64,000 bases of DNA from Spirochaetaceae bacterium (GCA_965224705.1 OZ245056.1:1664001-1728000), one strand, 5' to 3'. Positions 21,338 through 60,826 are shown, counted from the stretch's first letter. Notes: generated by a model from the sequence alone, not told the origin. Program-made: numbers and translations.

Positions 21338-22197
<860 letters not shown>

Positions 22198-22619: not shown

Positions 22620-22782
22620 GGTGCACTTCGCTGGGGTCTTGATAAGATGGCTATGAGACGGGTTTTTTCGACAAAAAGAAAGTTTAACAAAGAAAAATAC
22701 GACTCAAGGGGGGGGGCTTGAGAATCCCCCCTGCGCTCCGTAAAAAGCGGCTTTTTCAAGCCGTATGCGGGCCAGCTCTGAG
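22620..22782 (-). pseudogene. 5' remnant and upstream spacer repeat of the AAA-nuclease gene, inverted
   Basis: The reverse complement matches the array spacer (CTCAAG..CCCCTTGAGTCGTATTTTTCTTTGTTAAACTTTC) joined to ...CTCATAGC.CATCTTATCAAGACCCCAGCGAAGTGCACC of the gene. Confidence 0.82.
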
Positions 22783-23028
22783 CAAAAAAGCGTCATAAAA
22801 GGAATGGGCCAGGATTCCTGTTTTTGGCAAAGAAGTATGTCTAAAACATTAAAAGGCATGGCAGAAACTTCATTTTCAATGATCATTGGGTCGAGGCAGC
22901 GACATTTCTTCTCGGACTGATACCTTAATGGAGAGTTTTTGAATTAGCTCAATAGTTAACCGGATTTTCTATTGACCCATTACATACTAACATATAGATT
23001 TGGATTACTCGTGGACAAGGAGAGAGTT

Positions 23029-23982
23029 ATGAAAAACTATAAAACAGCAGGAGCGTTACTGGTAATCGCACTCATGATATTGACGGGCTGCCCTTCGCCG
23101 ACGGGGAACGGTGATGGTGTAACTGAGATGAAATTCATCGATATTCAGGGCGGAACCTTCCAGATGGGCAGTACCGACAGCGATGCTAGTCCGGATGAAA
23201 GCCCGGTGCACAGCGTAACGGTGGATTCGTTTTCAATGACCGAAACGGAGGTGACCCACCGGCAGTATTTGGAATTTCTAAACGATGCCGGAGTGTCTGC
23301 ATCCGGGGAGCTGAATGGCAACAAGGTGATAGATATGGGAACATATAGCTTTACAGCTTTTAGCCATGACGGCACGAAGTTTATCTTTTCCATATCAGAA
23401 AAAGCGGATGATATTGACTGTCCGGTGATGGAAGTGACGTGGTACGGAGCCGTGGAATACAGCAACTGGCTGAGTGAACAAGATGGTCTCACCAGGGCGT
23501 ATACCATAAGCGACACAGACAGCACAGATGTAACCTGGGACCAGACTGCCAACGGCTACCGTTTGCCGACGGAAGCGGAGTGGGAGTATGCGGCTCGGGG
23601 AGGGGGCCAATCACAGGGGTATAAGTATGCTGGGAGTAACGATGTGAGTGAAGTGGGGTGGTATTGGGATAATTCCGAGTTTAAGACCCATCCGGTGAAG
23701 GGAAAGAAGGCCAATGAACTGGGCTTGTATGACATGAGCGGTAATGTGGCGGAGTGGTGCTGGGATTGGTATGCTTCGTATTCAAGTTCCCCTGAAAACA
23801 ATCCCACAGGTCCGTCTTCAGCCCCGGACGACATACGCTCGGCACGAGTCCTTCGGGGCGGTAACCACTCCAGTTTCACCGGTCGCTACAGTAGTTTGCG
23901 TTCAACTAAGCGCATCGGTACCCTCCTCCCTGGCACCGGCTCAGACAAGTACGGGTTCCGGCTGGCCCGGTCTGCGGATTGA
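23029..23982 (+). CDS. FGE-sulfatase/SUMF1 (CLec-fold) domain lipoprotein
   Basis: Start MKNYK after AAGGAG; lipobox LTGC; GGTFQMGS, RLPTEAEWEYAARG, NELGLYDMSGNVAEWCWD and GFRLAR motifs. Confidence 0.9.
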   Translation: MKNYKTAGALLVIALMILTGCPSPTGNGDGVTEMKFIDIQGGTFQMGSTDSDASPDESPVHSVTVDSFSMTETEVTHRQYLEFLNDAGVSASGELNGNKVIDMGTYSFTAFSHDGTKFIFSISEKADDIDCPVMEVTWYGAVEYSNWLSEQDGLTRAYTISDTDSTDVTWDQTANGYRLPTEAEWEYAARGGGQSQGYKYAGSNDVSEVGWYWDNSEFKTHPVKGKKANELGLYDMSGNVAEWCWDWYASYSSSPENNPTGPSSAPDDIRSARVLRGGNHSSFTGRYSSLRSTKRIGTLLPGTGSDKYGFRLARSAD

Positions 23983-35288: not shown

Positions 35289-35563
35289 AGTGATTAGTTG
35301 TCCCAAAGTCCTGCCTCTGTGGAGACTGACTTTGGAATTTCTTATGGGATAAGGAGGTAATGCAGCACTTATTTGAATCACCACTCAAACCTGGAAATTC
35401 AAATAAGTTGTTTACATCGCCTTGAAACAATGAGGGAGCCCGCCGTTCCTCACTCAGGTTCGCGGGACGGCAGGAGGGTGTGTTCAACCCCGCCCTTCTG
35501 ATCGCAGCGGAAGCAGGCGGTTCGTCTGCTGTCAGTATTTCATATAATATAAGGAATGAAACA

Positions 35564-38500
35564 ATGTTAAAAACAGTTCTGAAGTCTCTTGCATTCTTCT
35601 CGATCTTATTCTTGATGGCCTGTCCATCCCCGGTGGTCGATACTGGAGACGCCGATGCCGTCGCCAGCGCCAAGGCGGCCCTCACCATCGGATACAAGGC
35701 CGCTGATGGCTATTATCCGACTGCTGATAGCGCGGATTCGGTTACGGCGGACATTACCCTTCCCAGCACCGGCACGGGGGGAACCACTGTTACATGGGAA
35801 TCCAGCAAGGCAAGTGTCATCGGCACGGATGGCAGCGTCACTCGCCCGGCATCCGGCGCGGGCGATGAAACCATTACACTCACGGCAACCATTAGCAAGG
35901 GTAACGCGGAGGATACCAGGGAATTTACTCTCATTGTTAAGCAAAAGACTGCCGCGGATGTCGATATTGATACCGCCGAAAGCAATCTTGCCATTTCCTA
36001 TGCGGGTACGGATGCTGCGGATTCGGTCACAGAGGACATTACCCTCCCCACCCTTGGTTCGGAAGACACCACCGTTACCTGGGAATCCGACAATGAGGCC
36101 ATCGTCATTCAGAATGGTCAGGCCACTGTGAACCGCCCCCTATCCAGCGCGGCGGACGCGGAAGTTACACTCACGGCAACCATCAGCAAGCAAGGCGGCC
36201 GGTCGATTACAAAAACCTTCACTCTTACCGTAAAGAAGAATGCCGATGCCGCCGGAGACAATCTCGCGGCAGCCAAGGCGGCTCTGGTTATCGATTATGC
36301 GGGATCTGATACCGCGGATGCAGTCACAGAGGACATCACCCTTCCCGACACCGGGGAGCACGACTCCACCATCACCTGGGAGTCCGGCGATACCAACATC
36401 ATCAGCGATGCAGGCATTGTAACTCGAGGAGACTTTGCTGACGGCGAAGGCCATGAACAGGTAACCCTGACGGCCACCATCACGATTGCTCCTTCCTCCG
36501 TAACGAAGTCCTTTACTCTCACCGTGCTGGAAGAAGACCCAAGCGATCAGCAAGCCGTCAATACCGCCAAGGCCGACCTGAGTGTCTCTTACGCTGCGGG
36601 TGATAGCCAAAAAGTGGTAACCGCGAACTTTGAACTTCCCGCCAAAGGCAAGTACGACACCGATATTGCCTGGAATTCCGACAATACCGCCATCGAAATA
36701 AGCCAGACCCCGAGCAATGGGTTCTACACCGCCACCGTCACCCGTCCCGATTTGACGACTGGGGATGTGTCTGTCATCCTGAAAGCCACTATTTCCAGGG
36801 GAACCACCGAAGAAACCAGGCAATTCTTTCCCACGGTGGAGGCTTCCGGCAAACCCGAAATAACAGGAAGCATCGCCTATGTTATACAGGCAACCACCTA
36901 TGGTACCGGCACCACAACACCCGTTGACGCCCAGGGACTGGACGGACGGAAGGACCTCGCGTATGCCCTTGTGAAAGATGTACCGGGCATAACGGTGAAC
37001 GAGGCGAATGGAGAGCTGGAAATAGGGGTCGGCGTACAGGCTGGCGAGCATTCCATTACAGTAGAGCTTCGTTCATCGGATACCACGGGCACCCTCGAAT
37101 GGAGCGGAACCATAACCGTAGAGAAGAAATTACTTACGGGAGAAAGTCTGACTTATCCCGCGCTGACGACGGTTCGGGGTGCGGACAGTGGAAATATGGC
37201 CAGTCCTCTGGCCGGTTTCCTGGCGGGAGGCGATAATCTGGCCGATGTTGTCGATTTCGCTATTGCCAAAACAGGAACAGGGGGAAGTGGAACGGACAGC
37301 GATGTGTCGATCTCTACAGACGGAGTCGTCACTGTCGAAACAGACATTGAAATCACCGCGACCGAATACACCGTCACCGCCACCGCAAAGACCGATGGCA
37401 GCTATGCCGATTTCACGACTGGAACCATTACCGTGACGGTGGGAACCCCCAGTATAGACGGGGAGTTCGACCACAGCATACCGACTTCGATTACGTATGG
37501 TGAGGGTGCAACATACTCGGTTGAGAGCAATACTGTCACAGGAGAATCCGTGACATTTGCCCTTGAGAATCCGGTTACAGGCATAACGGTTGCTTCAAAT
37601 GGAGAGATAACAGTCGCAGCAGATTTGGATGCCGGTACCCATTCTATAACGGTGAAAGCGACAGCCTTAGATCTCCTTGGAACAGTTACGAAATCCTACA
37701 CCATCACCATTGATCCAAAATCCATCTCGGCCGCATCCCTGACATACGCTCCACTGACGGTGGATAGGGACGCGAGTACTGGAAATACGGTCACTCCTAC
37801 CCTGACGAGTTTGACTGATTTGTTGGTATCAGGCGATAGCCTTACCGATGCGGTCAGTTTTTCCATCGCCAAGACAGGAACATCGGGAACTGGAACGGAC
37901 GGCGCTGTGTCGGTCGATGATAATGGCGTTGTTACTGCCATTACCTCAACGGTCTTCACCGCGACCGAGTACACCGTTACCGCGACCGGGAAAGGGAACT
38001 ATGCCGGTTCCCCGACCGGGACCATTACTGTAACGGTGAATACACCCGCGATGAGCGGAGATTTCGACTACGACATACCGGATTCGATTACGTATGGCGA
38101 TGGCCCGACATACGGTATTTCCACCAACAATATTGCTACAACTCAAGGCCTAACATTTGCCCTTGAAACTTCAGTCCCAGGCATAACGGTTGCCCCGGGT
38201 GATGGAACGATAACAGTCGACGAAAATTTGGCTGTCGCTGATTATGATATAACGGTAAAAGCCACTTCAGCAGACTTCACGGGCGAGATTAGTCAGGATG
38301 AAACCATAAGTGTCCAGAAGAAATCAATAACGGGCACTTTAGGGTACACCGCTCTGACACTAGCTGTGAATGCTCAGGACAATACTTCCACTTCGCCAAC
38401 GGTTAATTTCCTGGTGGGAGGCGATGCTCTGGCCGATGCCGTGGACTTCACAATCGCGAAGAAAAGCGGCCCGGGGCCAGCTGCAGGCAGCATTGCTGCA

Positions 38501-41500
38501 GACGGAGTCATTACTGTCAACACAGCAACTAACTTTACAGAAACCGTTTACACCGTTACCGCGACCGGGAAAGGGAACTATGACGGTTCCATAACCGGGG
38601 ACATTAGCATAACGGTAACAGCGGATGATGTAGGACCTGGAAAGCCCGGCAACTTTGGCGTCAGTACGGAGAGCAATGGGGGTGTCAAGCTCACCTGGGC
38701 TGAACCTACAGATAAAGGTATATACAACAATACGACAGCAACAATCACAGGTTACACAATCTATTATTCGACAAGCTCTACCTTCACAAAGGGCAATGCG
38801 GAGACTACAATACCTGATTTGGATTCAGCGCTCACCAGCCACACAATCACGTCCGGGCTGACTGCCGGTACGCAGTATTACTTCCTCATGACGGCGACGA
38901 ACGGACATGGTGAGGGCGGGGTAACGGACACGTTATCGACGTATACGAATAGCGCCCCAGGAGCGCCCGCCCTAACGCTGGCAACGACCAGCACCGGGGT
39001 CAGCGTAGACTGGAATGTCTCGGATCTGGGATATTACGAGGGCAAGGATGCGGCGCTAACCGGAATCGATATCTATTATGCCAATCAATCAAACGTCAGC
39101 ACGAGCGGTACCCCTGTGTCAGTTTCAACGAGTAGCGCGACGGGCTCAGAGAATATAGATATTGCTGATCCTGGCGTGAAGTATTACTTCATCGCGACGG
39201 CCACGAATGGAGCTGCTACGGGCAGTCCGACGAGCCCGGCAGTATCGGTGACTCTAGATAAGGCGCCGGGAGCCCCCACCGGCTTCTCCGCCACTGGTGG
39301 AACTACTGAAGTTACGCTCAACTGGGACGTGCCTTCTGATCTGGGATATAAGGATAACGCGGAGGGGTCGATAACGAGTTACCATATCTACTACAAGGAG
39401 GGTTCCAGCGTCTCAACGACAGATTCTACTGGCACTGCAACAGCGGCTTCGACTGATAGATCGAAGACAATAAGTAGTCTCACTGCCGGCACACAGTATG
39501 CCTTCATCATGACGGCGGAAACTGGCGCTGGCGTGGGTGCGGCTACGACTGTAAAGACAGTGTATACGAATGCTGCCCCTGGAGCGCCTACTCTTATCTC
39601 CGTAACAGGGGGGGATGAAGAAGCCACGCTTGTCTGGACTGCGCCAAGTGATAAGGGCTATTCAGGCGGTTCAACAGCAACGCTCTCAGGCTACTATATC
39701 TATTACTCGACGACTTCTGGCTTTAATAAGGCTACGAGTGGAGTTACGAAGTCCGGCCTCCTAGGTGTGGGTGCCAGCCCTCATACAATTACTGGACTTA
39801 CTACTGCCGGTACACAGTATTACTTCCTCGTGACGGCGGCGAACGCTGCTGACGAGGGTACGGCGTCGAATGAGGAGTCGACGTATACGGATGGCGGCCC
39901 AGGAGCGCCCACCCTAACGGTGACAGCGACCAGCACTGGGGTCAGCGTAGGCTGGACCGTCTCGGATCCGGGATATTCGGGGGGATCGGCGGCATCAGTA
40001 ACCGGAATCGATATCTATTATGCCGATCAAACAGGCGTCACCACCACGAGCGGCGGAGCCCATGTGTCAGTTTCAACGACTAGCGCGACGGGCACAGAGG
40101 CTATAACTATTGATGATCCTGGCGTGGAGTATTACTTCATCGCGACGGCCACGACTGGAGCTGGTACGAGTGTGGGGAGTACGGAGGCATCGGTGATTCT
40201 TAATAAGGCGCCGGGAGCCCCCGCCAGCTTCACCGCCACGGGTGGAGATGAAGAAGTTACACTCAACTGGGCCGCACCTTCTGATCTGGGTTATGTGAAT
40301 GGCTCGGAGGGATCGATAACGAGTTACGCTATCTATTACAAGGCGGGTTCCAGCGTCACAACGTCAGATTATGATACTGTGACAACAGCGATTTTGACTG
40401 CAACATCGAAGACAATAACCGGTCTTAGTGCCGGCACGCTGTATCACTTCATCATGACGGCGTCTAACGGTCATGCTGAGAGCGCGCCAACGGACGAAAG
40501 GGCGACACATACGGATACTGTCCCTGAGAAACCTACCGGTGTTTCACTATCGGGCGGAGATCAACGGGTTACATTAACATGGACCGCACCTGGTAATACG
40601 GGCTATGTAGGCGGTTCAGCAGGAACGCTCACAGGTTACAATATTTACTATTCGCAGAACTCCGGCGTTACTGTTGAAAATGGAACTAAGCACGAAGTCA
40701 ACTCGGGGACTGCCACCATGCAGGAAATCTCCAACCTTGCTCCCAATACGCAGTATTACTTCATCATAACGGCGAAGACTGCTGCCGGTGAGAGTTTGCC
40801 GACAACTGCGGAAACATTCACAATCTCCCCGGCATTCAGCTCCGGTGAAGTAACCATGGACGTCAATGAAATAATAACCAGGGTGGGCACGGCCGCAAGC
40901 GAGCAGGTTACCTTTGGAGGCTCTCTCACAGCGGGTACGCACTACACCCTGTCCTTGCAGCGTCCTCAGGGCGCCAGCTCTTCGGTCACCATAAACGACG
41001 CCACAGGACTCATAACTGTAGCCAACACGGTAGCCGCCGCCGATGGCGGACAATACACTGTCATCGCAGCGGGATCAGGCGGCCAAAAACTCTCCGCGGC
41101 GTTTACTTTGACGCTTTACGATACCGATCTGGCGGGTCTCCTGCTGAACGGTGAAAGGATTCCGGCTGACTTGAGCAACTCCGACGCATTCACCCAGGCC
41201 ATACTTGCAGACTACAATGCCGACGCGACCATGACGGCCTTCTATGTCACCGAGAACGGTGCCGGAAGCAAAGATGGTTCTTCCTGGGCCAACGCCATCG
41301 CCGGGACTGGCCTGCGAAGCGAGCTTCAGAGTCCGGCCGGCGATGCGGACAACATACACTTCATCCTGGTTGGCGCCGGTACCTACAAACCGACGAAGCA
41401 AATGATGATGCGGAGCCACGCTGCCATCATCGGCGGCTGGCCGGCTTCGGGCGGCTGGATCCGCGGCGGCGCTGAGACCATCTTTGATGGAGAGAAGCAG

Positions 41501-42793
41501 AGGCGATTGTTCTATAACAGTATCCCCCTGACTAACGCCAAGCTCTATGGGGCGGTTATTCAGAATGGCAGTTACTCTACAGCAAATGGGGGAGCGGTGT
41601 TCAGCATGAGTTCAACTACCGCGTTTATCGACGTGCGCTTCCTCAATAACACCTCAGGAAGTAATGGCGGAGCTGTATACGACAGAGACGGTACTGTTAA
41701 GTTTTCTAATGTTACATTCGACGGCAATACTTCCACTGTCGCTACCACTGGTTCCGTCGGCGGCGGAGCTCTCTACACTGACACTTCAAGTGCCGAACTC
41801 ACCGACGTGGTATTTAAAAACAATAAAGCCCATGCTTACGGTGGGGGCCACTATAGCCTTAACGCATCTCTTGAGTACAGCCGAGTGCAATTCCTGAACA
41901 ATGAATCCGGCCTGTCTAAAGAGGGGGACGGCGGGGGTTTATTCGTGAGAAGTGGTACTAATGTTAAGCTTTCTCATGTAATATTTGATGGCAACAACAC
42001 AGCCAAAGGTAATGGCGGGGGAGCCAGCATTTGGACTGCTACCGGGACCTCATTATCCCATGTGACTTTCAAGAATAATACGATTCTATCCTACCAAAAT
42101 GGTGGAGGATTGTATGCCTGGGAGTCAGACTTCAGCGTTTCTCATGCGACATTTTCTGGAAATTCGGGGAGGGGTTCCGCGATTGGAACAAAGAAGTCCA
42201 CGTATGAGCTCAACCAGATGACAATCACGGAGAATGATGGCGATGCGGTAATATTCTATGGCGAAGACTCAAACGCGGTGATTACCAACACCCTCATCTG
42301 GGGGAACACAGCCACAATAGGAGGAGGTGTAGAAGTTGCGCCCGCGTTCTGGTTAGAACCCAAGGCCAACACGACGGATGTTTTGACGATTTACAACAGT
42401 TTATGGGAGGAGGGCATCAGGGAGTATGGTGGTGTTAAAGGTTTCTATTTATGGGGCGGCAGCGGCTCCGCCGTAACCCTTACCCAAGCCAGCAATATCA
42501 TTACCGACGGGACTGAGGCTGCAGTGCTCGGCAGCTTGATGACCACCGGCGACGAATACCTCATGACTTATCCCCTGACCACAGGCAGTCTGGCCCAGAA
42601 CGCGGGCATCTATGTCCAGCGGGGGACGGACGGTACCTATTACTACAGTGGTGATAACTCGAATTGGTTCGAAGAACCGGGACTTACCACTTCCGTTACG
42701 CTGCCCAGCGGCACGGAGGAACTGACGGCGAAGGATGTTCCGGGGAATAACCGCAACGGTGTCCCCGACATCGGTGCCTACGAACTGCAATAG
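35564..42793 (+). CDS. Giant surface lipoprotein (~2409 aa): Ig-like repeats, 7 FN3 domains and a C-terminal beta-helix
   Basis: Start MLKTV after AAGGA; lipobox FLMAC. Four SVT.DITLP...TW.S..VTRP..TLTATI repeats, three two-domain repeats, seven PGAP..W..Y.IYY..YYF repeats, GG(A)/F.NN repeats and a PDIGAYE end. Confidence 0.88.
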   Translation: MLKTVLKSLAFFSILFLMACPSPVVDTGDADAVASAKAALTIGYKAADGYYPTADSADSVTADITLPSTGTGGTTVTWESSKASVIGTDGSVTRPASGAGDETITLTATISKGNAEDTREFTLIVKQKTAADVDIDTAESNLAISYAGTDAADSVTEDITLPTLGSEDTTVTWESDNEAIVIQNGQATVNRPLSSAADAEVTLTATISKQGGRSITKTFTLTVKKNADAAGDNLAAAKAALVIDYAGSDTADAVTEDITLPDTGEHDSTITWESGDTNIISDAGIVTRGDFADGEGHEQVTLTATITIAPSSVTKSFTLTVLEEDPSDQQAVNTAKADLSVSYAAGDSQKVVTANFELPAKGKYDTDIAWNSDNTAIEISQTPSNGFYTATVTRPDLTTGDVSVILKATISRGTTEETRQFFPTVEASGKPEITGSIAYVIQATTYGTGTTTPVDAQGLDGRKDLAYALVKDVPGITVNEANGELEIGVGVQAGEHSITVELRSSDTTGTLEWSGTITVEKKLLTGESLTYPALTTVRGADSGNMASPLAGFLAGGDNLADVVDFAIAKTGTGGSGTDSDVSISTDGVVTVETDIEITATEYTVTATAKTDGSYADFTTGTITVTVGTPSIDGEFDHSIPTSITYGEGATYSVESNTVTGESVTFALENPVTGITVASNGEITVAADLDAGTHSITVKATALDLLGTVTKSYTITIDPKSISAASLTYAPLTVDRDASTGNTVTPTLTSLTDLLVSGDSLTDAVSFSIAKTGTSGTGTDGAVSVDDNGVVTAITSTVFTATEYTVTATGKGNYAGSPTGTITVTVNTPAMSGDFDYDIPDSITYGDGPTYGISTNNIATTQGLTFALETSVPGITVAPGDGTITVDENLAVADYDITVKATSADFTGEISQDETISVQKKSITGTLGYTALTLAVNAQDNTSTSPTVNFLVGGDALADAVDFTIAKKSGPGPAAGSIAADGVITVNTATNFTETVYTVTATGKGNYDGSITGDISITVTADDVGPGKPGNFGVSTESNGGVKLTWAEPTDKGIYNNTTATITGYTIYYSTSSTFTKGNAETTIPDLDSALTSHTITSGLTAGTQYYFLMTATNGHGEGGVTDTLSTYTNSAPGAPALTLATTSTGVSVDWNVSDLGYYEGKDAALTGIDIYYANQSNVSTSGTPVSVSTSSATGSENIDIADPGVKYYFIATATNGAATGSPTSPAVSVTLDKAPGAPTGFSATGGTTEVTLNWDVPSDLGYKDNAEGSITSYHIYYKEGSSVSTTDSTGTATAASTDRSKTISSLTAGTQYAFIMTAETGAGVGAATTVKTVYTNAAPGAPTLISVTGGDEEATLVWTAPSDKGYSGGSTATLSGYYIYYSTTSGFNKATSGVTKSGLLGVGASPHTITGLTTAGTQYYFLVTAANAADEGTASNEESTYTDGGPGAPTLTVTATSTGVSVGWTVSDPGYSGGSAASVTGIDIYYADQTGVTTTSGGAHVSVSTTSATGTEAITIDDPGVEYYFIATATTGAGTSVGSTEASVILNKAPGAPASFTATGGDEEVTLNWAAPSDLGYVNGSEGSITSYAIYYKAGSSVTTSDYDTVTTAILTATSKTITGLSAGTLYHFIMTASNGHAESAPTDERATHTDTVPEKPTGVSLSGGDQRVTLTWTAPGNTGYVGGSAGTLTGYNIYYSQNSGVTVENGTKHEVNSGTATMQEISNLAPNTQYYFIITAKTAAGESLPTTAETFTISPAFSSGEVTMDVNEIITRVGTAASEQVTFGGSLTAGTHYTLSLQRPQGASSSVTINDATGLITVANTVAAADGGQYTVIAAGSGGQKLSAAFTLTLYDTDLAGLLLNGERIPADLSNSDAFTQAILADYNADATMTAFYVTENGAGSKDGSSWANAIAGTGLRSELQSPAGDADNIHFILVGAGTYKPTKQMMMRSHAAIIGGWPASGGWIRGGAETIFDGEKQRRLFYNSIPLTNAKLYGAVIQNGSYSTANGGAVFSMSSTTAFIDVRFLNNTSGSNGGAVYDRDGTVKFSNVTFDGNTSTVATTGSVGGGALYTDTSSAELTDVVFKNNKAHAYGGGHYSLNASLEYSRVQFLNNESGLSKEGDGGGLFVRSGTNVKLSHVIFDGNNTAKGNGGGASIWTATGTSLSHVTFKNNTILSYQNGGGLYAWESDFSVSHATFSGNSGRGSAIGTKKSTYELNQMTITENDGDAVIFYGEDSNAVITNTLIWGNTATIGGGVEVAPAFWLEPKANTTDVLTIYNSLWEEGIREYGGVKGFYLWGGSGSAVTLTQASNIITDGTEAAVLGSLMTTGDEYLMTYPLTTGSLAQNAGIYVQRGTDGTYYYSGDNSNWFEEPGLTTSVTLPSGTEELTAKDVPGNNRNGVPDIGAYELQ

Positions 42794-48405: not shown

Positions 48406-48633
48406 TTAAAACGGCCCCTGCTTCAACCGATTTGAACCGAGAAGTTTTTTGAATGCGCTTTGACGGCTTTTGTTGTCGAGAGCCAGGAACAGGCCGACAA
48501 TGGGCATCAGGAAGATGGAGGTGATGATGTGGGTTAAGGGGATCTGAGGCTTGCGGCGGATATCGGTAAAGCAGGAGCCGATTCTTCCGGGCAGATTAAC
48601 CCTGGTTTTGAGCAGTCTGATTATATTCTTCAT
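48406..48633 (-). pseudogene. Truncated putative transposase N-terminus
   Basis: Near-identical to 50871-51239 and located just inside an IS-like end. Confidence 0.55.
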
Positions 48634-50751: not shown

Positions 50752-50890
50752 ATGAAAAAACTCATCCTTCTCTACTGACCATCGCTACGCTAATCCTGTC
50801 GGCCCAGAAAAAAGTGGCCCTTGTTATCGGCAACAGTGCCTACGAGCACGTGGCCCCGCTTAAGAACCCGTTAAACGATGCCCAATCGGC
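50752..50890 (+). pseudogene. 5' fragment of a secreted caspase-like (peptidase C14) gene
   Basis: GGAGG then MKKLIL (frameshift) ...AQKKVALVIGNSAYEHVAPLKNPLNDAQ, cut by the IS remnant. Confidence 0.7.
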
Positions 50891-51239
50891 GGCTCTTTCC
50901 CTTTTGTGTGAACTTGATTTTCAAGGCATCATACTCTTCAAAGAGATCAGGTCCCAATGCCCATTTTGACTCTTTAAAGTTCCTGCCCCACCGAGGTACC
51001 CGTTCAATGGTGGAGTCTGAGGAGACCATCTTTCGTTTTGAACCGAGAAGTTTTTTGAATGCGCTTTGACAGCTTTTGTTGTCGAGAGCCAGGAACAGGC
51101 CGACAATGGGCATCAGGAATATGGAGGTGATGATGTGGGTTAAAGGGATCTGAGGCTTGCGGCGGATATCGGTGAAGCAGGAGCCGATTCTTCCGGGTAG
51201 ATCAACCCTGGTTTTGGGCAGTCTGATTATATTCTTCAT
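50871..51239 (-). pseudogene. Truncated putative DDE transposase N-terminus
   Basis: D.RRKPQIP...LD......F..L......SDSTI.R pattern next to a terminal inverted repeat; no catalytic core. Confidence 0.55.
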
Positions 51240-52368: not shown

Positions 52369-52440
52369 ACTGAAAGAAGCTGTGTCAGAAAGCTTGTAGA
52401 CATCTGTTTGCATTGCACCATTTCGACCTGATGGGTAACT

Positions 52441-52480
52441 TGTCAAATTAACTGTCCACTTTTTTCATGAAACTCATGAT
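52441..52480 (+). mobile_element. Isolated IS30-like end
   Basis: TGTCAAATTAACTGTCC...CATGAAACTCATG resembles the reverse complement of 22143-22197. Confidence 0.5.
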
Positions 52481-52509
52481 GACCTGTCTTTCAAGCTGTC
52501 AAATGAATT

Positions 52510-52599
52510 CCTGAAAAGATTATCATCTACGGGGTGGGCTTCCGCGGTAAGACACTGGCTCTGGAGGCAAGAGAGGGGGCGCTTCGCGCCCAGTTCTGA
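52510..52599 (+). pseudogene. 3' tail of a lost copy of the AAA-nuclease gene
   Basis: PEKIIIYGVGFRGKTLALEAREGALRAQF*. Confidence 0.85.
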
Positions 52600-52777
52600 G
52601 TTGACCCGCATACGGCGTTAAAAGCCGCTTTTCACAAAGTGCATGGGGGATTCTCAAGGGGGACACCCCCTTGAGTCGTATTTTTCTTTGTTAAACTTTC
52701 TTTTTGTCGAAAAAAAAGAAAGTTTAGGCCCAGCGGCCCGAGCGACACCCACAAAACCATGCTATGCTAAAGACGTC
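52600..52777 (+). repeat. Conserved ~180-bp hairpin spacer (also at 54530-54708, 56488-56680, 58463-58644, interrupted at 60418-60700, inverted at 22663-22782)
   Basis: Near-identical copies with CTCAAGGGG-loop-CCCCTTGAG and AAACTTTCTTTTT-GTCG-AAAAAAAGAAAGTTT stems. Confidence 0.9.
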
Positions 52778-54529
52778 ATGAAAAAGAATCTGACTCAGGG
52801 CATCACCGATTTCAAGGAATTCATCGACAATGATTGCTACTTTGTCGATAAAACCCATCTCATAGCGCATCTTATCAATGACCCCAGTAAGGTGCATCTC
52901 ATCACCCGCCCCCGCCGTTTCGGCAAAACCCTGAACCTCAGCATGATCCGCTACTTCTTCGAGGCACCCCCACCGGGCGGCGGCAGCGGCGCCGTGCCGC
53001 CCAATGCTGTGCTGTTCAATGACATGTCCATATCAAAACACCCCCGATGCCGCGAGTACATGGGCCAATATCCGGTGATACATTTAAGCTTCAAGAACGT
53101 AAAAAAATCGAATCATGAAGATTGCATGGCACTTATCAAAGATATGCTCTCCGATGAATTCCGTAGACATCAATACTTGCAAAACTCCGGTATGTTGGAT
53201 GATGCTGATCAAGAATGTTTTATCAGAATGCTGCAAAGAAAAGGTGCCGATCAGGATTGTGCCCAATCCATAAAACACCTCTCCTCCTGGCTCCATCGTG
53301 CCTACGGCAAACCGGTCTACATCCTTCTGGACGAGTACGACACCCCGCTGCACGCCGCCTATACCGACAGTTTTTATGATGAAATGATTGCCTTCATCCG
53401 CAGCTTCATGGTGCAGAGCTTCAAGGACAACCCCAATTTGAAACAGGCGGTGGTCATCGGGATACTCAAAGTGGCCCAGGAAAGCATCTTTAGCGACTTC
53501 AATAACCCGGCGGTGTCCACCGTGCTGAGCGACGCCATGAAGGATTGCTTTGGCTTCACGGAACCCGAAGTGGAAGAAATGGCCGCCTATTTCGGGCAGG
53601 AGTCCAGACTGGACGGCATTCGTCAATGGTACAACGGCTACATCTTCGGCGGCGACACGGTTATCTACAATCCCTGGAGTCTTGTGAGCTATTTCAGAAA
53701 CATCAAGGACGGACTTCTGCCCTACTGGGTGCACACCAGTGCCAACAGGATGGTTAAGGAAACGCTGCAGCTGAACAAAAGGGACAGCCGGGAAACCATG
53801 GAGAGGCTGCTCAGGGGAGAGGAGGTCAGACGGGAGGTGGCACTCAACATCGTCTACCCGCAGATCCGAACCCGCCCGGATGTGGCATGGAGTTTCCTTC
53901 TCCACGGCGGTTATCTCAAGGCCAGCGAAAGGCGGCAGCACGAGTTCAGCCAGGACTACCGGCTGGAAATTCCCAACCGGGAGGTGCGCTATTCCTACAT
54001 GACCACAATCAAGGATTGGCTGGAGGAAGATATGGAGGCAGGCGAATCCTTTCATTTCTTCATCCGCGGCATCAGGGAGGGAAATGCCGCCCTGATCGAG
54101 AGGGGTCTGGGGAAGGTTCTCCTGAGCATGGCCAGTTATTATGACACCGCTGGCGAAGACGAAGAAATGGAGCGGGTGGAGGGCTTCTACCACGGCCTGG
54201 TTCTGGGAATGCTGGCCTACCTGAGCGGCGAGTACACGGTGGAGAGCAACCGGGAATGCGGCATGGGCCGCCCCGACATCGTATTGATTCAACGCGGCTC
54301 CGGGCGGCCGGGTCATATTCTGCTGTTCGAGTTCAAACGGGAACCTGCCGCCGGAACCACGCCGCTCAAGCAGCTGGCGCAGGAGGCCTATGCCCAGGCG
54401 GAGCAAAAATACCTGGAGGGGGCGCAGGAGAAGTGGAACCCGGAAAAGATTATCATTTACGGGGTGGGCTTTCGCGGTAAGGCACTGGCTCTGGAGGCAG
54501 GCGGAGGGACGCTTCGCCCCCAGTTCTGA
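52778..54529 (+). CDS. AAA-ATPase-like + PD-(D/E)XK nuclease 9 protein, copy 1
   Basis: YFVDKT, RPRRFGKT (Walker A), ILLDEYD (Walker B), YNPWS, NRE.G.GRPD..FEFK. Start set by comparison with the paralogs. Confidence 0.92.
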   Translation: MKKNLTQGITDFKEFIDNDCYFVDKTHLIAHLINDPSKVHLITRPRRFGKTLNLSMIRYFFEAPPPGGGSGAVPPNAVLFNDMSISKHPRCREYMGQYPVIHLSFKNVKKSNHEDCMALIKDMLSDEFRRHQYLQNSGMLDDADQECFIRMLQRKGADQDCAQSIKHLSSWLHRAYGKPVYILLDEYDTPLHAAYTDSFYDEMIAFIRSFMVQSFKDNPNLKQAVVIGILKVAQESIFSDFNNPAVSTVLSDAMKDCFGFTEPEVEEMAAYFGQESRLDGIRQWYNGYIFGGDTVIYNPWSLVSYFRNIKDGLLPYWVHTSANRMVKETLQLNKRDSRETMERLLRGEEVRREVALNIVYPQIRTRPDVAWSFLLHGGYLKASERRQHEFSQDYRLEIPNREVRYSYMTTIKDWLEEDMEAGESFHFFIRGIREGNAALIERGLGKVLLSMASYYDTAGEDEEMERVEGFYHGLVLGMLAYLSGEYTVESNRECGMGRPDIVLIQRGSGRPGHILLFEFKREPAAGTTPLKQLAQEAYAQAEQKYLEGAQEKWNPEKIIIYGVGFRGKALALEAGGGTLRPQF

Positions 54530-54708
54530 GTTGACCCGCATACGGCGTAAAAAGCCGCTTTTCACAAAGCACATGGGGGATTCTCAAGGGGGCCACCCCC
54601 TTGAGTCGTATTTTTCTTTGTTAAACTTTCTTTTTGTCGAAAAAAAAGAAAGTTTAGGCCCAGCGGCCCGAGCGACCACTCACAAAACCATGCTATGCTA
54701 AAGACACC

Positions 54709-56487
54709 ATGAAAAAGAATCTGACTCAGGGCATCACCGATTTCAAGAAATTCATCGACAATGATTGCTACTTTGTCGATAAAACCCATCTCATAGCATA
54801 TCTTATCAATGACCCCAGCGAAGTGCACCTCATTACCCGCCCCCGGCGCTTCGGTAAAACCCTGAACCTGAGCATGATCCGCTACTTCTTCGAGGCCCCG
54901 CCACTGCACGGCGACCGCGGCGTTAGCAGCGAAGCCTCCACCGAAGAGCCGCCCAATGCGCCCTTGTTCAATGACATGTCCATATCAAAACACCCCCGAT
55001 GCCGCGAATACATGGGCCAATATCCGGTGATACACTTAAGCTTCAAGGACGTGAAAAAATCGAATCATGAAGATTGCATGGCACTCATCAAGGATATGCT
55101 CTCCGATGAATTCCGTAGACATCAATACTTGCAAAACTCCGGCATGTTGGATGACAGGGAACGGACAAAATTTGAAAAAATTCTGTACGATGAGGGCACG
55201 GATCAGGATTGTGCCCAATCCATAAAACACCTCTCCGCCTGGCTCCATCGCGCCTACAACAAACCGGTCTACATCCTTCTGGACGAGTACGACACCCCGC
55301 TGCACGCCGCCTACACCGACAACTTCTACGATGAAATGATTGCCTTCATCCGCAGCTTCATGGTGCAGAGCTTCAAGGACAACCCCAATTTGAAGCAGGC
55401 GGTGGTCATCGGCATACTCAAAGTGGCTCAGGAGAGCATCTTCAGCGACTTCAATAACCCGGCGGTGTCCACCGTGCTGAGCGACGCCATGAAGGATTGC
55501 TTTGGCTTCACGGAACCCGAAGTGGAAGAAATGGCCGCCTATTTTGGGCAGGAGTCCAGACTGGACGGCATTCGTCAATGGTACAACGGCTACATCTTCG
55601 GCGGCGACACGGTCATCTACAATCCCTGGAGTCTCGTGAGCTATTTCAGAAATATCAAGGACGGATTTCTGCCCTACTGGGTGCACACCAGTGCCAACAG
55701 GATGGTCAAGGAAACGCTGCAGCTGAACAAAAGGGACAGCCGGGAAACCATGGAGAGGCTGCTTAAGGGAGAGGAGGTCAGGCGGGAGGTGGCGGTCAAC
55801 ATCGTCTATCCGCAGATACGAACCCGCCCGGATGTGGCATGGAGTTTCCTGCTCCACGGCGGCTACCTGAAGGCCAGCGAAAGGCGGCAGCACGAGATAA
55901 GCCAGGACTACCGGCTGGAAATTCCCAACCGCGAGGTACGCTATTCCTACATGACCACAATCAAGGACTGGCTGGAGGAGGATGTGGAGGCGGGCGAGTC
56001 CTTTCATTCCTTTATCCGCGGCATCAGGGAAGGGGACGCGACCCTGATAGCGGAGGGTCTTGGGGAAATTCTCCTGGGCCTTGCCAGCTTCCACGATACC
56101 GCCTCCCAGGGCGAAAAAGAAGAAAAGAAGCGGGTGGAGGGCTTCTACCACGGCCTGGTTCTGGGGATGCTGGCCTACCTGAGCGGCGAGTACACGGTGG
56201 AGAGCAACCGGGAATGCGGCATGGGCCGCCCCGACATCGTATTGATTCAACGTTGCTCTGGGCGACCCGGTCATGTTCTGCTGTTCGAGTTCAAACGGGA
56301 ACCTGCCGCCGGAACCACGCCGCTCAAGCAGCTGGCACAGGAGGCCCATACCCAGGCGGAGCAAAAATACCTGAAGGGGGCGCGGGAAAAGTGGAACCCG
56401 GAAAAGATTGTCATCTACGGTGTGGGCTTTCGCGGCAAGGCACTGGCTCTGGAAGCAGACGAGGGGGTGCTTCGCACCCAGTCCTGA
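54709..56487 (+). CDS. AAA-ATPase-like + PD-(D/E)XK nuclease 9 protein, copy 2
   Basis: Same motifs as copy 1; intact ORF. Confidence 0.92.
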   Translation: MKKNLTQGITDFKKFIDNDCYFVDKTHLIAYLINDPSEVHLITRPRRFGKTLNLSMIRYFFEAPPLHGDRGVSSEASTEEPPNAPLFNDMSISKHPRCREYMGQYPVIHLSFKDVKKSNHEDCMALIKDMLSDEFRRHQYLQNSGMLDDRERTKFEKILYDEGTDQDCAQSIKHLSAWLHRAYNKPVYILLDEYDTPLHAAYTDNFYDEMIAFIRSFMVQSFKDNPNLKQAVVIGILKVAQESIFSDFNNPAVSTVLSDAMKDCFGFTEPEVEEMAAYFGQESRLDGIRQWYNGYIFGGDTVIYNPWSLVSYFRNIKDGFLPYWVHTSANRMVKETLQLNKRDSRETMERLLKGEEVRREVAVNIVYPQIRTRPDVAWSFLLHGGYLKASERRQHEISQDYRLEIPNREVRYSYMTTIKDWLEEDVEAGESFHSFIRGIREGDATLIAEGLGEILLGLASFHDTASQGEKEEKKRVEGFYHGLVLGMLAYLSGEYTVESNRECGMGRPDIVLIQRCSGRPGHVLLFEFKREPAAGTTPLKQLAQEAHTQAEQKYLKGAREKWNPEKIVIYGVGFRGKALALEADEGVLRTQS

Positions 56488-56680
56488 GTACAAAGTTCTG
56501 AGTTGGCCCGCATACGGCATAAAAAGCCGCTTTTTACAGAGCGCAGGGGGGATTCTCAAGGGGGACACCCCCTTGAGTCGTATTTTTCTTTGTTAAACTT
56601 TCTTTTTGTCGAAAAAAAAGAAAGTTTAGGCCCAGCGGCCCGAGCGACCACTCACAAAACCATGCTATGCTAAAGACACC

Positions 56681-58462
56681 ATGAAAAAGAATCTGACTCA
56701 GGGCATCACCGATTTCAAGAAATTCATCGACAATGATTGCTACTTTGTCGATAAAACCCATCTCATAGCATATCTTATCAATGACCCAAGCGAAGTGCAT
56801 CTCATCACCCGCCCCCGCCGCTTCGGTAAAACCCTGAACCTGAGCATGATCCGCTACTTCTTTGAAGCCCTGCCGCCGGGCGGCAACAGCGGCGTTAGCA
56901 GCGAAGCCTCCACCGAAGAGCCGCCCAATGCCTCATTGTTTAATGACATGTCCATATCAAAACACCCCCGATGCCGCGAATACATGGGCCAATATCCGGT
57001 GATACACTTAAGTTTCAAGAACGTGAAAAATTCGAATTATGAAGATTGCATGGCACTTATCAAAGATATGCTCTCCGATGAATTCCGTAGACATCAATAC
57101 TTGCAAAACTCCGGTATGTTGGATGATGCTGATCAAGAATGTTTTATCAGGATGCTGCAAAGAAAAGGTGCCGATCAGGATTGTGCCCAATCCATAAAAC
57201 ACCTCTCCTCCTGGCTCCATCATGCCTACGGCAAACCGGTCTACATTCTTCTGGACGAGTACGACACCCCGCTGCACGCCGCCTACACCGACAACTTCTA
57301 CGATGCAATGATCGCCTTCATCCGCAGCTTCATGGTGCAGAGCTTCAAGGACAACCCCAATTTGAAGCAGGCGGTGGTCATCGGCATACTCAAAGTGGCC
57401 CAGGAGAGCATTTTCAGTGACTTCAATAACCCCAGGGTGTCCACCCTCATGGATCCAGCAATGAAGAATTGCTTCGGCTTCACGGAACCCGAAGTGGAGG
57501 CCATGGCGGACTACTACGGACTAGGGGACAGGATGGACGGCATCAGGGAATGGTACAACGGTTACATCTTCGGCGGGGACACAGTCATCTACAATCCCTG
57601 GAGCATCATCAACTACCTAAGCGCTCCGGAGGCCGGACTGCGGCCCTACTGGGTGCACACCAGTGCCAACAGGATGGTCAAGGAAACGCTGCAGCTGAAC
57701 AAAAGGGACAGCCGGGAAACCATGGAAAGGCTGCTCAGAGGAGAGGAAGTCAGGCGTGAGGTGGCACTCAACATCGTCTATCCGCAGATACGAACCCGTC
57801 CGGATGTGGCGTGGAGTTTCCTTCTCCACGGCGGCTACCTGAAGGCCAGCGAAAGACGGCAGCACGAGATAAGCCAGGACTACCGGCTGGAAATTCCCAA
57901 CCGGGAGGTGCGCTATTCCTACATGACCACAATCAAGGATTGGCTGGAGGAGGATATGGAGGCCGGTGAATCCTTTCATTTCTTCATCCGCGGTATCAGG
58001 GAAGGGGATGCCACCCTGATCGAGAGAGGTCTGGGGAAGGTTCTCCTGAGCATGGCCAGTTATTACGACACCGCTGATACCGACGACGACGACGAGGAAA
58101 TGGAGCGAGTGGAGGGCTTCTACCACGGTCTGGTTCTGGGAATGCTGGCCTACCTGAGCGGCGAGTACACGGTGGAGAGCAACCGGGAATGCGGCATGGG
58201 CCGCCCCGACATCATATTGATTCAACGCGGCTCCGGGCGGCCGGGTCATATTCTGCTGTTCGAGTTCAAACGGGAGCCTGCCGCCGGAACTACACCGCTC
58301 AAGCAGCTGGCACAGGAGGCCTATTCCCAGGCGGAGAAGAAATACCTGGAGGGGGCACAGGAGAAGTGGAACCCGGAGAAGATTGTCATCTACGGGGTGG
58401 GCTTTCGCGGCAAGACACTGGCTCTGGAGGCAGGCGGAGGGACGCTTCGCGCCCAGTTCTGA
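56681..58462 (+). CDS. AAA-ATPase-like + PD-(D/E)XK nuclease 9 protein, copy 3
   Basis: Same motifs as copy 1; intact ORF. Confidence 0.92.
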   Translation: MKKNLTQGITDFKKFIDNDCYFVDKTHLIAYLINDPSEVHLITRPRRFGKTLNLSMIRYFFEALPPGGNSGVSSEASTEEPPNASLFNDMSISKHPRCREYMGQYPVIHLSFKNVKNSNYEDCMALIKDMLSDEFRRHQYLQNSGMLDDADQECFIRMLQRKGADQDCAQSIKHLSSWLHHAYGKPVYILLDEYDTPLHAAYTDNFYDAMIAFIRSFMVQSFKDNPNLKQAVVIGILKVAQESIFSDFNNPRVSTLMDPAMKNCFGFTEPEVEAMADYYGLGDRMDGIREWYNGYIFGGDTVIYNPWSIINYLSAPEAGLRPYWVHTSANRMVKETLQLNKRDSRETMERLLRGEEVRREVALNIVYPQIRTRPDVAWSFLLHGGYLKASERRQHEISQDYRLEIPNREVRYSYMTTIKDWLEEDMEAGESFHFFIRGIREGDATLIERGLGKVLLSMASYYDTADTDDDDEEMERVEGFYHGLVLGMLAYLSGEYTVESNRECGMGRPDIILIQRGSGRPGHILLFEFKREPAAGTTPLKQLAQEAYSQAEKKYLEGAQEKWNPEKIVIYGVGFRGKTLALEAGGGTLRAQF

Positions 58463-58644
58463 GTTGACCCGCATACGGCGTTAAAAAAGCCGCTTTTCAC
58501 AAAGTGCATGGGGGATTCTCAAGGGGGTGCCCCCCTTTGAGTCGTATTTTTCTTTGTTAAACTTTCTTTTTGTCGAAAAAAAAGAAAGTTTAGGCCCAGC
58601 GGCCCGAGCGACCACTCACAAAACCATGCTATGCTAAAGACGTC

Positions 58645-60417
58645 ATGAAAAAGAATCTGACTCAGGGCATCACCGATTTCAAGGAATTCATCGACAATGA
58701 TTGCTACTTTGTCGATAAAACCCGTCTCCTAGCGCATCTTATCAATGACCCCAGCAAGGTTCATCTCATCACCCGCCCCCGCCGCTTCGGTAAAACCCTG
58801 AACCTCAGCATGATCCGCTACTTCTTCGAGGCCCTGCCGCCGGGCGGCAACAGCGGCGTTAGCGGCGATGCCCCCTCCGAAGAGCCGCCCAATGTCTCAT
58901 TGTTCAATGACATGTCCATATCAAAACACCCCCGATGCCGCGAATACATGGGCCAATATCCGGTGATACACTTAAGTTTCAAGAACGTGAAAAAATCGAA
59001 TCATGAAGATTGCATGACACTTATCAAGGATATGCTCTCCGATGAATTCCGTAGACATCAATACTTGCAAAACTCCGGCATGTTGGAAGACAGGGAACGG
59101 ACAAAATTTGAAAAAATTCTGTACGATGAGGGCACGGATCAGGATTGTGCCCAATCCATAAAACACCTCTCCGCCTGGCTCCATTGTGCCTACGGTAAAC
59201 CGGTCTACATCCTTCTGGACGAGTACGACACCCCGCTGCACGCCGCCTACGCCGACAAATTCTACGATGAGATGATCGCCTTCATCCGCAGCTTCATGGT
59301 ACAGAGCTTCAAGGACAACCCCAATTTGAAGCAGGCGGTGGTCATCGGCATACTCAAAGTGGCCCAGGAGAGCATCTTCAGCGACTTCAACAATCCGGCA
59401 GTGTCCACCCTGCTCGATCCCGAAATGGAGGACTGTTTCGGCTTCACGGAACCCGAAGTGGAGGCCATGGCGGACTACTATGGGCTTGGGGACAGGATGG
59501 ACGGCATCAGGAAATGGTACAACGGCTACATCTTCGGCGGGGACACGATCATCTACAATCCCTGGAGCATAGTCAATTACCTCAGGAGACCATCGGCCGG
59601 ACTGCGCCCCTACTGGGTGCACACCAGTGCCAACAGGATGGTCAAGGAAACGCTGCAGCTGAACAAAAGAGACAGCCGGGAAACCATGGAGAGGCTGCTC
59701 AGGGGAGAGGAGGTCAGACGGGAGGTGGCACTCAACATCGTCTACCCGCAGATACGGACCCGCCCGGATGTGGCATGGAGTTTCCTGCTCCACGGCGGCT
59801 ACTTGAAAGCCAGCGAAAGGCGGCAGCACGAGTTCAGCCAGGACTACCGGCTGGAAATTCCCAACCGGGAGGTGCGCTATTCCTACATGACCACAATCAA
59901 AGACTGGCTGGAGGAGGATGTGGAGGCGGGCGAGTCCTTTCATTTCTTCATCCGCGGCATCAGGGAAGGGGATGCCGCCCTGATCGAGAGGGGTCTGGGG
60001 AAGGTTCTTTTGAGCATGGCCAGTTATTATGACACCACTGGCGAAGACGAGGAAATGGAGCGGGTGGAGGGCTTCTACCACGGACTGGTACTGGGGATGC
60101 TTGCCTACCTGAGTGGCGAGTACACGGTGGAGAGCAACCGGGAATGCGGCATGGGCCGCCCCGACATCGTATTGATTCAGCGCAGCTCCGGGCGGCCCGC
60201 CCATGTTCTGCTGTTCGAGTTCAAACGGGAGCCTCCCGCCGGAACCACGCCGCTCAAGCAGCTGGCGCAGGAGGCCTATTCCCAGGCGGAGCAAAAATAC
60301 CTGAAGGGGGCACAGGAGAAGTGGAACCCGGAGAAGATTGTCATCTACGGGGTGGGCTTTCGCGGCAAGGCACTGGCATTGGAAGCAAGCGGAGGGGCGC
60401 TTCGCGCCCAGTTCTGA
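58645..60417 (+). CDS. AAA-ATPase-like + PD-(D/E)XK nuclease 9 protein, copy 4
   Basis: Same motifs as copy 1; intact ORF. Confidence 0.92.
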   Translation: MKKNLTQGITDFKEFIDNDCYFVDKTRLLAHLINDPSKVHLITRPRRFGKTLNLSMIRYFFEALPPGGNSGVSGDAPSEEPPNVSLFNDMSISKHPRCREYMGQYPVIHLSFKNVKKSNHEDCMTLIKDMLSDEFRRHQYLQNSGMLEDRERTKFEKILYDEGTDQDCAQSIKHLSAWLHCAYGKPVYILLDEYDTPLHAAYADKFYDEMIAFIRSFMVQSFKDNPNLKQAVVIGILKVAQESIFSDFNNPAVSTLLDPEMEDCFGFTEPEVEAMADYYGLGDRMDGIRKWYNGYIFGGDTIIYNPWSIVNYLRRPSAGLRPYWVHTSANRMVKETLQLNKRDSRETMERLLRGEEVRREVALNIVYPQIRTRPDVAWSFLLHGGYLKASERRQHEFSQDYRLEIPNREVRYSYMTTIKDWLEEDVEAGESFHFFIRGIREGDAALIERGLGKVLLSMASYYDTTGEDEEMERVEGFYHGLVLGMLAYLSGEYTVESNRECGMGRPDIVLIQRSSGRPAHVLLFEFKREPPAGTTPLKQLAQEAYSQAEQKYLKGAQEKWNPEKIVIYGVGFRGKALALEASGGALRAQF

Positions 60418-60826
60418 GTTGGCCTACATACGGCGTTGAAAAAGCCCCTTGAAATTTTCAAGTATATGTATCGTCCAGCGCTTTCAAGCGGGTTTACCGT
60501 CTCTAAAAAAGCCATGGAGGAATTTTTTAGAAGTTCCATTAAGAACCAAATCCTACGCCCTGAATTAAGTCCCCCCGAAATTTTGGGGGGGCGCGGAGCG
60601 AAGGGGGATTCTCAAGGGGGCCCCCCCTTGAGTCGTATTTTTCTTTGTTAAACTTTCTTTTTGTCGAAAAAAAGAAAGTTTAGGCCCAGCGGCCTGAGCG
60701 ATATTGAAGAAAGAACCTTTTGGCCATAGAATACGTGCATTATGTCATATTTCAGACCTAAGCGCACTGCAAAGAAATATCTGTTGCCGACCGGTATATT
60801 CATTGTGTACCTAAGCGGTTGCCAGG

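Follow-up and report, generated by a model that had tools for sequence, protein, structure and literature searches.

A tandem array of four nuclease genes in a Spirochaetaceae genome (GCA_965224705.1) raises the question of how genes that are almost identical over most of their length came to carry divergent sequence blocks in different combinations, and what those blocks might do. The array lies at positions 52,510–60,826 of the window, meaning the whole stretch of 64,000 nucleotides that was analysed (OZ245056.1:1664001–1728000), on a genome in one contig of 3,005,944 bp (here G000); coordinates without a prefix count from the first letter of the window, and features are on the plus strand unless stated otherwise. 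All four genes belong to the DUF1703 family, which was defined by Knizewski et al. (2007; PMC1913061). They proved to be four of 44 DUF1703 genes that exchange blocks across the genome, and the role that we favour, at a little less than an even chance, is that of a repertoire of conflict (anti-invader) nucleases in which the swapped blocks set recognition.

Organization of the array

The array stands between a pfkB sugar kinase gene on one side and glnS on the other. It comprises, in the order given by the assembly, copy 1 (52778..54529, 583 aa), copy 2 (54709..56487, 592 aa), copy 3 (56681..58462, 593 aa) and copy 4 (58645..60417, 590 aa), with start-to-start distances of 1931, 1972 and 1964 bp and 86–92 % protein identity. 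All four frames were open, and each product possessed both DUF1703 domains above the cut-off, the AAA-ATPase-like domain (PF09820; 150–158 bits against 26.1) and the C-terminal PDDEXK_9 domain (PF08011; 43–47 bits against 25.5), so that the initial annotation of four intact, near-identical paralogues was borne out. The nearest titled protein relatives came from two Spirochaetaceae genomes (61–63 % protein identity).

Recombination between the copies

Sequence differences among the four proteins fell mainly into three blocks. In block B (aa 113–172 of copy 4; 58981..59160) they were found chiefly at aa 145–164; the core (aa 147–163) was 100 % alike in copies 1 and 3 (DADQ type) and 94 % alike in copies 2 and 4 (DRER type), with 29–35 % identity between the types, in agreement with the sharing first proposed. 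Block C (aa 251–322 of copy 4; 59395..59610) was 99 % alike in copies 1 and 2 (SLVS type), which were 65–69 % identical there to copies 3 and 4. Copies 3 (SAP type) and 4 (RRP type), which had initially been assigned a single C type, were 85 % alike; as they carry different alleles, the array holds three C alleles rather than two. The alternative D allele of copy 2 (56044..56135) was unique within the array, as claimed, but was also present in three other G000 copies (G000:1108958, 1110895 and 1450608); among 42 close proteins taken from other records, 16 had it as well. A frameshifted and truncated DUF1703 remnant elsewhere in the window (21338..21689) had the expected DRER-type B core, although its wider B region appeared by eye nearer to the allele of G000:1450608 than to those of copies 2 and 4.

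Among 99 informative sites in the four copies, 45 grouped copies 1 and 2 against 3 and 4, 41 grouped 1 and 3 against 2 and 4, and 13 grouped 1 and 4 against 2 and 3. These groupings were strongly clustered along the gene: sites 435–492, in block B, supported the second, sites 766–962, in block C, supported the first with one exception, and 81 adjacent sites had the same grouping, compared with a mean of 38 and a maximum of 58 in 100 000 permutations (runs test, P~1e-5). A test resembling the pairwise homoplasy index (PHI), our own version based on four-gamete incompatibility of biallelic sites and not PhiPack, reached its floor (P=0.0005) for the four copies, also when restricted to third codon positions. 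With both tests strongly significant, the claim that the mosaic goes beyond simple duplication stood, and its production by recombination is strongly supported. All six pairings of the two B cores with the three C types were found among the 42 close proteins, some of which may stem from related samples; B and C are therefore not locked as a pair.

That dispersed paralogues were wrongly joined during assembly to give the mosaic is scarcely credible. No read or contig spanned the array, as such an error would allow, but none of the four frames is interrupted, every copy differs from the others at sites of its own, the same alleles recur in other pairings among the 42 proteins, and arrays in two other single-contig genomes have the same block pattern.

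Block exchange across the genome

A scan of all open reading frames (ORFs) in G000 identified 44 full-length DUF1703 members, which together with some 12 remnants are spread over about 25 loci; the genes span 77.6 kb, or 2.6 % of the genome. The paralogues that the initial annotation had asked to be collected are thus 44 intact copies, with the array contributing four. A whole-protein tree from a quick, unfinished search, confounded by recombination and used for subfamily assignment only, placed the array in a subfamily of 16 members (81–94 % DNA identity), with two further subfamilies of 11 and seven members.

Comparison in 150-nt windows revealed that copy 3 was identical to G000:1646083 near aa 427–473 and copy 2 to G000:504972 from aa 519 onwards, whilst copy 4 was 99 % identical to three other loci near aa 228–278. 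The PHI-like test was likewise at its floor for the 12 non-array members of the 16-member subfamily and for both other subfamilies. With a 10 % DNA cut-off, the 44 copies fell into 24 classes for B, 17 for C and 14 for D, and the 16 subfamily members held 15 different combinations of the three blocks. Because the closest donor of a block was often at another locus, block exchange is genome-wide and the array is not self-contained; the view of the array as the shuffling unit gave way to one in which the unit is the whole family.

DUF1703 is widespread, with 7571 of 7999 scored candidates at an E value of 1e-20 or better. One RNA run contained contigs of the family, in which depth sums all paralogues and DNA is possibly present. 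A subfamily protein with the B, C and D alleles of G000 was also seen on a 2-kb contig labelled as a gammaproteobacterial symbiont (P0047), by mis-binning or transfer. Beside an array of five genes lie two near-identical genes in tandem (L050:16273–18704), each of about 285 aa and Rpn/PD-(D/E)XK-like by eye, and a second expanded nuclease family may be present.

Predicted structure of the proteins

A structure model of copy 4 was built from a 72-row alignment. Residues ~20–425 of the model matched archaeal STAND-like ATPases, CED-4, plant nucleotide-binding leucine-rich-repeat (NLR) proteins, ORC/Cdc6 proteins and Avs3, and the arrangement of core, helical and following domains was that of STAND and ORC proteins (Z 9–12.5 over 220–297 residues for 2qen, 2fna, CED-4, NLRs and ORC2). 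The best match was Paby2304 (Z 12.5, root mean square deviation (rmsd) 5.1, 285 aligned residues), followed by SSO1545 (Z 11.8, rmsd 4.1, 279 aligned) and, at a lower level, Avs3 (Z 9.4, rmsd 4.1, 220 aligned). The nuclease part (~428–584) matched CidB/CinB (Z 10.0, rmsd 3.4, 148 aligned) and EcoRV. Foldseek returned one match at an E value of 0.001 or better, the viral fold library none at that level, and searches of solved structures by sequence, with the single protein and with a profile, gave chance matches only. RdrA was not among the fold matches listed. The protein is thus predicted to consist of a STAND/Orc1-like NTPase followed by a helical lid and a winged-helix-like domain, with a restriction-type nuclease at the C terminus.

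When the blocks were mapped on this model, as had been suggested, block B formed a three-helix insertion between the strand at 107–111 (strand 2) and the helix preceding the Walker B strand, block C took in the last part of the NTPase core together with the helical lid, and block D corresponded to the helix preceding the nuclease together with an acidic tract. Proteins of the initiator clade carry an insertion between alpha2 and beta2 which binds DNA in Orc1 (PMC5039278), and block B is predicted to occupy the position of this initiator-specific motif of Orc1/Cdc6. No repeat-type or separate sensor domain was present in the model, and the earlier designation of the proteins as sensor-nucleases found no support in it.

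Selection on the backbone and on the blocks

The RPRRFGK(S/T) Walker A motif, the DEYD Walker B motif and the nuclease D and ExK motifs were present in the family. Residues G49, K50, D192, E193, D507, E525 and K527 were invariant in all 44 G000 copies, with T51 replaced by S in one, and the corresponding Walker A, Walker B and nuclease residues were also invariant in 18 of 18 copies from relatives. The ratio of non-synonymous to synonymous substitution (dN/dS) was 0.21–0.22 overall and 0.03–0.15 in the core stretches at aa 176–250 and 323–443. Relaxed selection, which had been named as a sign against a functional array, was not what these values indicated; they support purifying selection on copies with intact catalytic motifs.

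Blocks B and C had raised dN together with raised dS (for B, dS 1.09 compared with 0.26 in aa 176–250 of the 16-copy subfamily), and block D likewise combined high dN with high dS at a ratio below 1. Because dN and dS were both high and the ratios below 1, the blocks appear to be old, divergent alleles that are moved whole rather than products of fresh hypermutation. Several hydrophobic and scaffold positions in block B were fixed, with the positions between them varying. Where the genes of a family convert one another, selection for different versions would be expected to show up as divergence that peaks locally. Only loop A (aa 63–82 of copy 4; 58831..58890), a low-confidence and indel-rich segment, had a dN/dS near 1 in the array subfamily.

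These ratios could also be read as near-neutral expansion, in which a tolerated gene spreads by recombination that is unequal or assisted by insertion sequences (ISs) and imports blocks from co-living relatives with no effect on function. Ratios below 1 in the blocks and near 1 in loop A would fit, as would flanks crowded with repeats and IS pieces and the signs of gene flow with the related genome G009. We regard this as distinctly unlikely, given 44 intact copies with invariant catalytic residues that take up 2.6 % of the genome, and given that separate arrays in three genomes keep the same two blocks divergent next to C-terminal halves homogenized to 88–100 % identity.

Copies and alleles in related genomes

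Four of 13 genomes of the same genus had matches to the family (10 in G001, 11 in G009, four in G012 and one in G003). G007, which is 93 % complete, had none, and the other eight genomes lacking a match were fragmented. Eighteen of the 22 full-length copies from relatives (~580 aligned residues) were analysed, leaving out one copy of a G001 array and the lone genes of G009 and G012. The arrays of relatives varied at the same places, most in B and next in C, with one G001 array varying also near aa 391–450; B alternated a-b-a-b in both G001 arrays, and recombination was detected in three of three arrays tested from G001 and G009 (P=0.001).

Alleles crossed species boundaries. Block C of copy 1 was 82 % identical to that of G009 copies, compared with 67–69 % to copies 3 and 4, whereas its C-terminal half was 96 % identical to copies 3 and 4 and at most 57 % identical to G001 and G009 copies. 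In the second G001 array, two B alleles only 45 % alike stood on C-terminal halves that were 88–98 % identical, and each was 77–83 % identical to a different G000 allele; taken together with the three-gene array of G009, two B alleles per array were 42–45 % alike and 77–88 % identical to different G000 alleles. This age pattern of B and C alleles fits either balancing selection or gene flow. In G009, gyrase/topoisomerase-like genes (L037:15296–19676) were also 96 % identical to G000, a possible recent interspecies transfer.

The presence and absence of family genes bear on a toxin-antidote (addiction) set, in which the nucleases would be held off by co-assembly with compatible paralogues, loss of a type would kill the cell and types would accumulate. 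STAND-like folds typically oligomerize, the nuclease domain is closest to Wolbachia CidB/CinB, and a DUF1703 gene lies within the beetle MEDEA element (PMC6387759). Nonetheless, we consider such a set very unlikely: B and C pair freely in six combinations, unlike a co-evolved interface, copies have been lost and broken (about 12 remnants), and G007, a nearly complete genome, has no match.

Weighing a role in defence

As conflict nucleases, the proteins would work as follows. The ATPase would restrain the nuclease, releasing it once the trigger is encountered by the B insertion and the C lid; this trigger would most likely be foreign DNA or a phage DNA–protein complex. Homologous gene conversion started in the conserved flanks would swap whole blocks, unequal crossing-over of a two-gene unit would give the ABAB order of B, and selection for breadth would retain several alleles whilst the backbone is homogenized. 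A more far-reaching version, which we rate as possible but on balance doubtful, would make the DUF1703 proteins sensor-less NLR-like nucleases with specificity inside the ATPase (insertion and lid), kept as a balanced cross-species repertoire like that of the major histocompatibility complex and reshuffled by gene conversion among dozens of self-promoted genes.

The neighbourhoods of 22 family regions (141 of 148 called neighbours) were compared with those of 18 of 19 arbitrarily placed control regions (150 of 166 genes). Any PADLOC match was found for 21 of 141 proteins in family regions and for 10 of 150 control proteins. Defence genes lay within ~5 kb in five of 22 family regions compared with none of the 18 controls (one-sided Fisher test, P=0.04; P=0.05 with two loci of the window added); the matches judged specific were type II restriction-modification (twice), Cas3, HEC-01, and JetD with PD-Lambda-5. 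In relatives, three of nine hand-picked neighbours, near three loci, were methyltransferases.

Several points weigh against this role. The defence enrichment is borderline and rests on our own judgement of which PADLOC matches are specific, 17 of the 22 scanned regions had no defence neighbour, no defence gene stood beside the array itself between the sugar kinase and glnS, and hot spots of mobile DNA would give the same proximity. Copies 2 and 4 had no match in PADLOC (2023 library) or NCBIfam at an E value of 0.1, and no biochemical or phage test of DUF1703 was found in a literature search outside which most subscription papers lay. The structure model is middling (predicted local distance difference test 74, predicted template modelling score 0.57), and the placement of B rests on topology, not on residue-level superposition. 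With dN/dS below 1 in B, C and D, there was no sign of positive selection by point mutation. The B cores of the four array copies had no close match in G001 or G009 (at most 53 %), and the sharing of alleles between species may reflect recent gene flow, which could supply them since some G009 genes are 96 % identical to G000 while GlnRS is only 79 % identical.

In a separate region (L053:608–14414), a cluster of defence genes surrounds a two-gene family array and includes JetD (Wadjet), a type IIG restriction remnant and a PD-Lambda-5 A/B-like pair preceded by the hairpin element S described below.

Gene units and mobility

A TAnnnT motif ending 5–11 nt 5′ of the start codon was found in 42 of the 44 family genes and in 204 of 1311 other called genes; a Shine–Dalgarno-like motif was found in none of the 44 and in 566 of the 1311, in a comparison in which the paralogues are not independent. 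The four array copies are alike in having an extended −10-like box and no Shine–Dalgarno motif; in copy 4 this predicted leaderless promoter (58627..58635) ends 9 nt 5′ of the ATG. Each DUF1703 copy thus looks like a self-promoted leaderless cassette.

A 100-bp double hairpin, element S, lies 5′ of each array copy (52645..52745, 54575..54675, 56546..56647 and 58510..58611), and a gene-less trailing copy (60603..60701) precedes glnS, which starts at 60827. The element 5′ of copy 4 had a z value of −4.07 as DNA, and an Rfam scan of the array gave no match at an E value of 5. G000 has 27 copies, and for every one the nearest family gene or remnant is no more than ~1 kb away. A role as a family-specific end or a site of recombination was rejected, as searches of G001 and G009 found no element S, their arrays doing without it, and in G012 it stood between unrelated genes; for the same reasons the element most likely represents a small palindromic repeat that travels with the copies of this lineage. 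A truncated element S with a scrap of the gene also occurred on the minus strand (22663–22781).

Upstream of copy 1, what is left of a fifth copy, its final 29 codons with the stop (52510..52599), is joined to the truncated end of a repeat element (52434..52512), which has three other genome copies that are 94–96 % alike and is probably an IS end, judging from a transposase-like ORF at one of the sites. The fusion at 52510–52512 probably marks the deletion by which this copy was lost. The fifth 3′ tail and empty trailing spacer of the initial annotation are thus real, and contraction of the array by at least one copy is supported. An apparent junction at 52512 in public contigs was traced to another copy of the repeated element. 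At four array ends (G000:C1:506900, 507272, 1645891 and 2215449), element S runs directly into the last 76 or fewer codons of a family gene, the joint falling at one and the same base in all of them. A site-specific cut was considered and discarded for these junctions, since the end of S matches one gene allele over 11–13 bp; a single microhomology deletion that was later copied is more likely. Such units are possibly silent 3′ donors.

The genes move, as their loci differ between species: the loci of G001, G009 and G012 were not at positions matching those of G000, and no family gene was near their glnS. The sugar kinase next to the array had only 42–47 % matches in relatives, too distant for clear orthology. 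Movement of the genes fits a selfish mobile element, in which the nuclease would act as a transposase or homing-type cutter, an Orc1/TnsC-like ATPase would pick targets, B would alter target preference and arrays would be by-products of local reinsertion and unequal crossing-over. Dispersal over about 25 loci, a compact unit with its own −10-like box and ~85 bp of upstream sequence common to four unrelated loci from nearly the same point would be expected of it; TnsC was among the fold matches (Z 7.9), and a link between STAND NTPases and transposase ATPases is one for which PMC8195603 cites Zhang et al. (2016). We judge such an element unlikely. Exact flank repeats were at chance level across 23 loci, bar leftovers of the unit, so that neither terminal inverted repeats nor target-site duplications stood out (imperfect or distant repeats were not sought), and no joint skipping a whole locus, as an empty site would give, was present among the joints listed, which came from short public contigs only. 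Element S is no required end, and recent IS copies are near-identical, whereas copies within DUF1703 subfamilies are 80–96 % identical and mosaic. Retroposition is unlikely, because sequence 5′ of the promoter-like box travels with the gene. No clear vector emerged from the phage collection (32 records, all unannotated faecal contigs below 60 % identity) or the plasmid collection (60 records, 49 of them non-mobilizable).

Within another array, a transposase-like gene of 469 aa (L054; G000:C1:1449128–1450537) separates a family gene from its promoter-like box; a 4-bp duplication is apparent there by eye, and ORFs resembling this gene lie at 110154 and 2906102. Whole or partial reverse transcriptase genes occur a few kb from three family loci (L046:11923–12534, L058:11549–12811 and L062:4157–4750), and FGE-sulfatase-type genes lie near L046 (by eye) and at 22972–23982 of the window (Pfam); a diversity-generating retroelement is conceivable.

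Comparison with known systems

The array proteins have the two domains, Walker A and B motifs, four-part layout and nuclease motifs of DUF1703 as originally described, with no architectural difference; function, copy number and block variation are not given in the available text of PMC1913061. Expansion with recombination has been published: Siozios et al. (2019; PMC6387759) reported 25 recombining DUF1703 paralogues of unknown function in Cardinium cCpun, and recombination in a midge Rickettsia. The likeness lies in many paralogues with intragenic recombination, a pattern that the array repeats at finer resolution. In contrast to Cardinium, G000 has 44 copies, many in tandem, a word absent from the main text of PMC6387759; its subfamilies have 80–96 % DNA identity, compared with 39 % mean protein identity in Cardinium; and its swaps resolve into discrete blocks with alleles common between species.

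Secretion of the proteins as effectors against an animal host or neighbouring microbes, diversified against host targets in line with the suggestion made for Cardinium, seems highly improbable. Such effectors would be in keeping with the finding of the sequence in runs labelled mollusc metagenome, among others, the expansion of the family in symbionts (PMC6387759) and the CidB/CinB-like nuclease fold. However, no signal peptide was seen: a hydrophobic N-terminal stretch was found in none of the 44 copies (highest 9-residue hydropathy mean 1.76, in a crude check made with no signal-peptide predictor). No secretion genes were found beside the array, and relatives occur in free-living anaerobes.

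For residues ~20–420 the best folds are those of Paby2304 (2qen), SSO1545 (2fna) and Orc1/Cdc6, with a helical insertion between strand 2 and helix 2. Sequence identity is only ~10 %, and the matches exclude the nuclease; DNA binding by the insertion is a feature of Orc1, whereas the array proteins are known by predicted topology. The favoured conflict nucleases would share with the Avs (AVAST) and NLR-like anti-phage STAND proteins the combination of a STAND-type NTPase with a nuclease, but they lack a C-terminal repeat sensor (of the tetratricopeptide type) and a PADLOC match, have the nuclease at the C terminus of only 590 aa, and vary inside the ATPase module.

Exchangeable segments combine specificities in the hsdS genes of phase-variable type I restriction systems and in shufflons. 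The array differs from both in that no recombinase lies beside it between pfkB and glnS, a promoter-like box of its own precedes each copy, and the breakpoints shift in the manner of homologous conversion, with the extent of the B swap differing between copies. Defence systems in which PD-(D/E)XK and NTPase domains occur are validated in PMC13092281, in the available text of which DUF1703 is not named.

What G000 adds is resolution: its alleles are discrete, old and found across species, and they lie where a recognition surface is predicted, on backbones that hardly differ. Block alleles common to several species were not reported in the literature searched, most subscription papers lying outside the search. 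Were the blocks to set the target or trigger, a common gene family would turn out to encode an ATP-gated nuclease that can be retargeted, and bacteria would have a new way of generating diversity of the immune type. Specificity is directly testable, because copies 1–4 differ mainly in B, C and D on a backbone that is ~90 % identical.

Other features of the window

Two copies of a transposase-like 5′ scrap (48406–48633 and 50871–51239) flank an acyl-CoA synthetase gene, with more copies in the genome. At 35480–42793 the window encodes a protein of 2437 aa with Ig-like, fibronectin III and beta-helix repeats, which is probably a surface adhesin.

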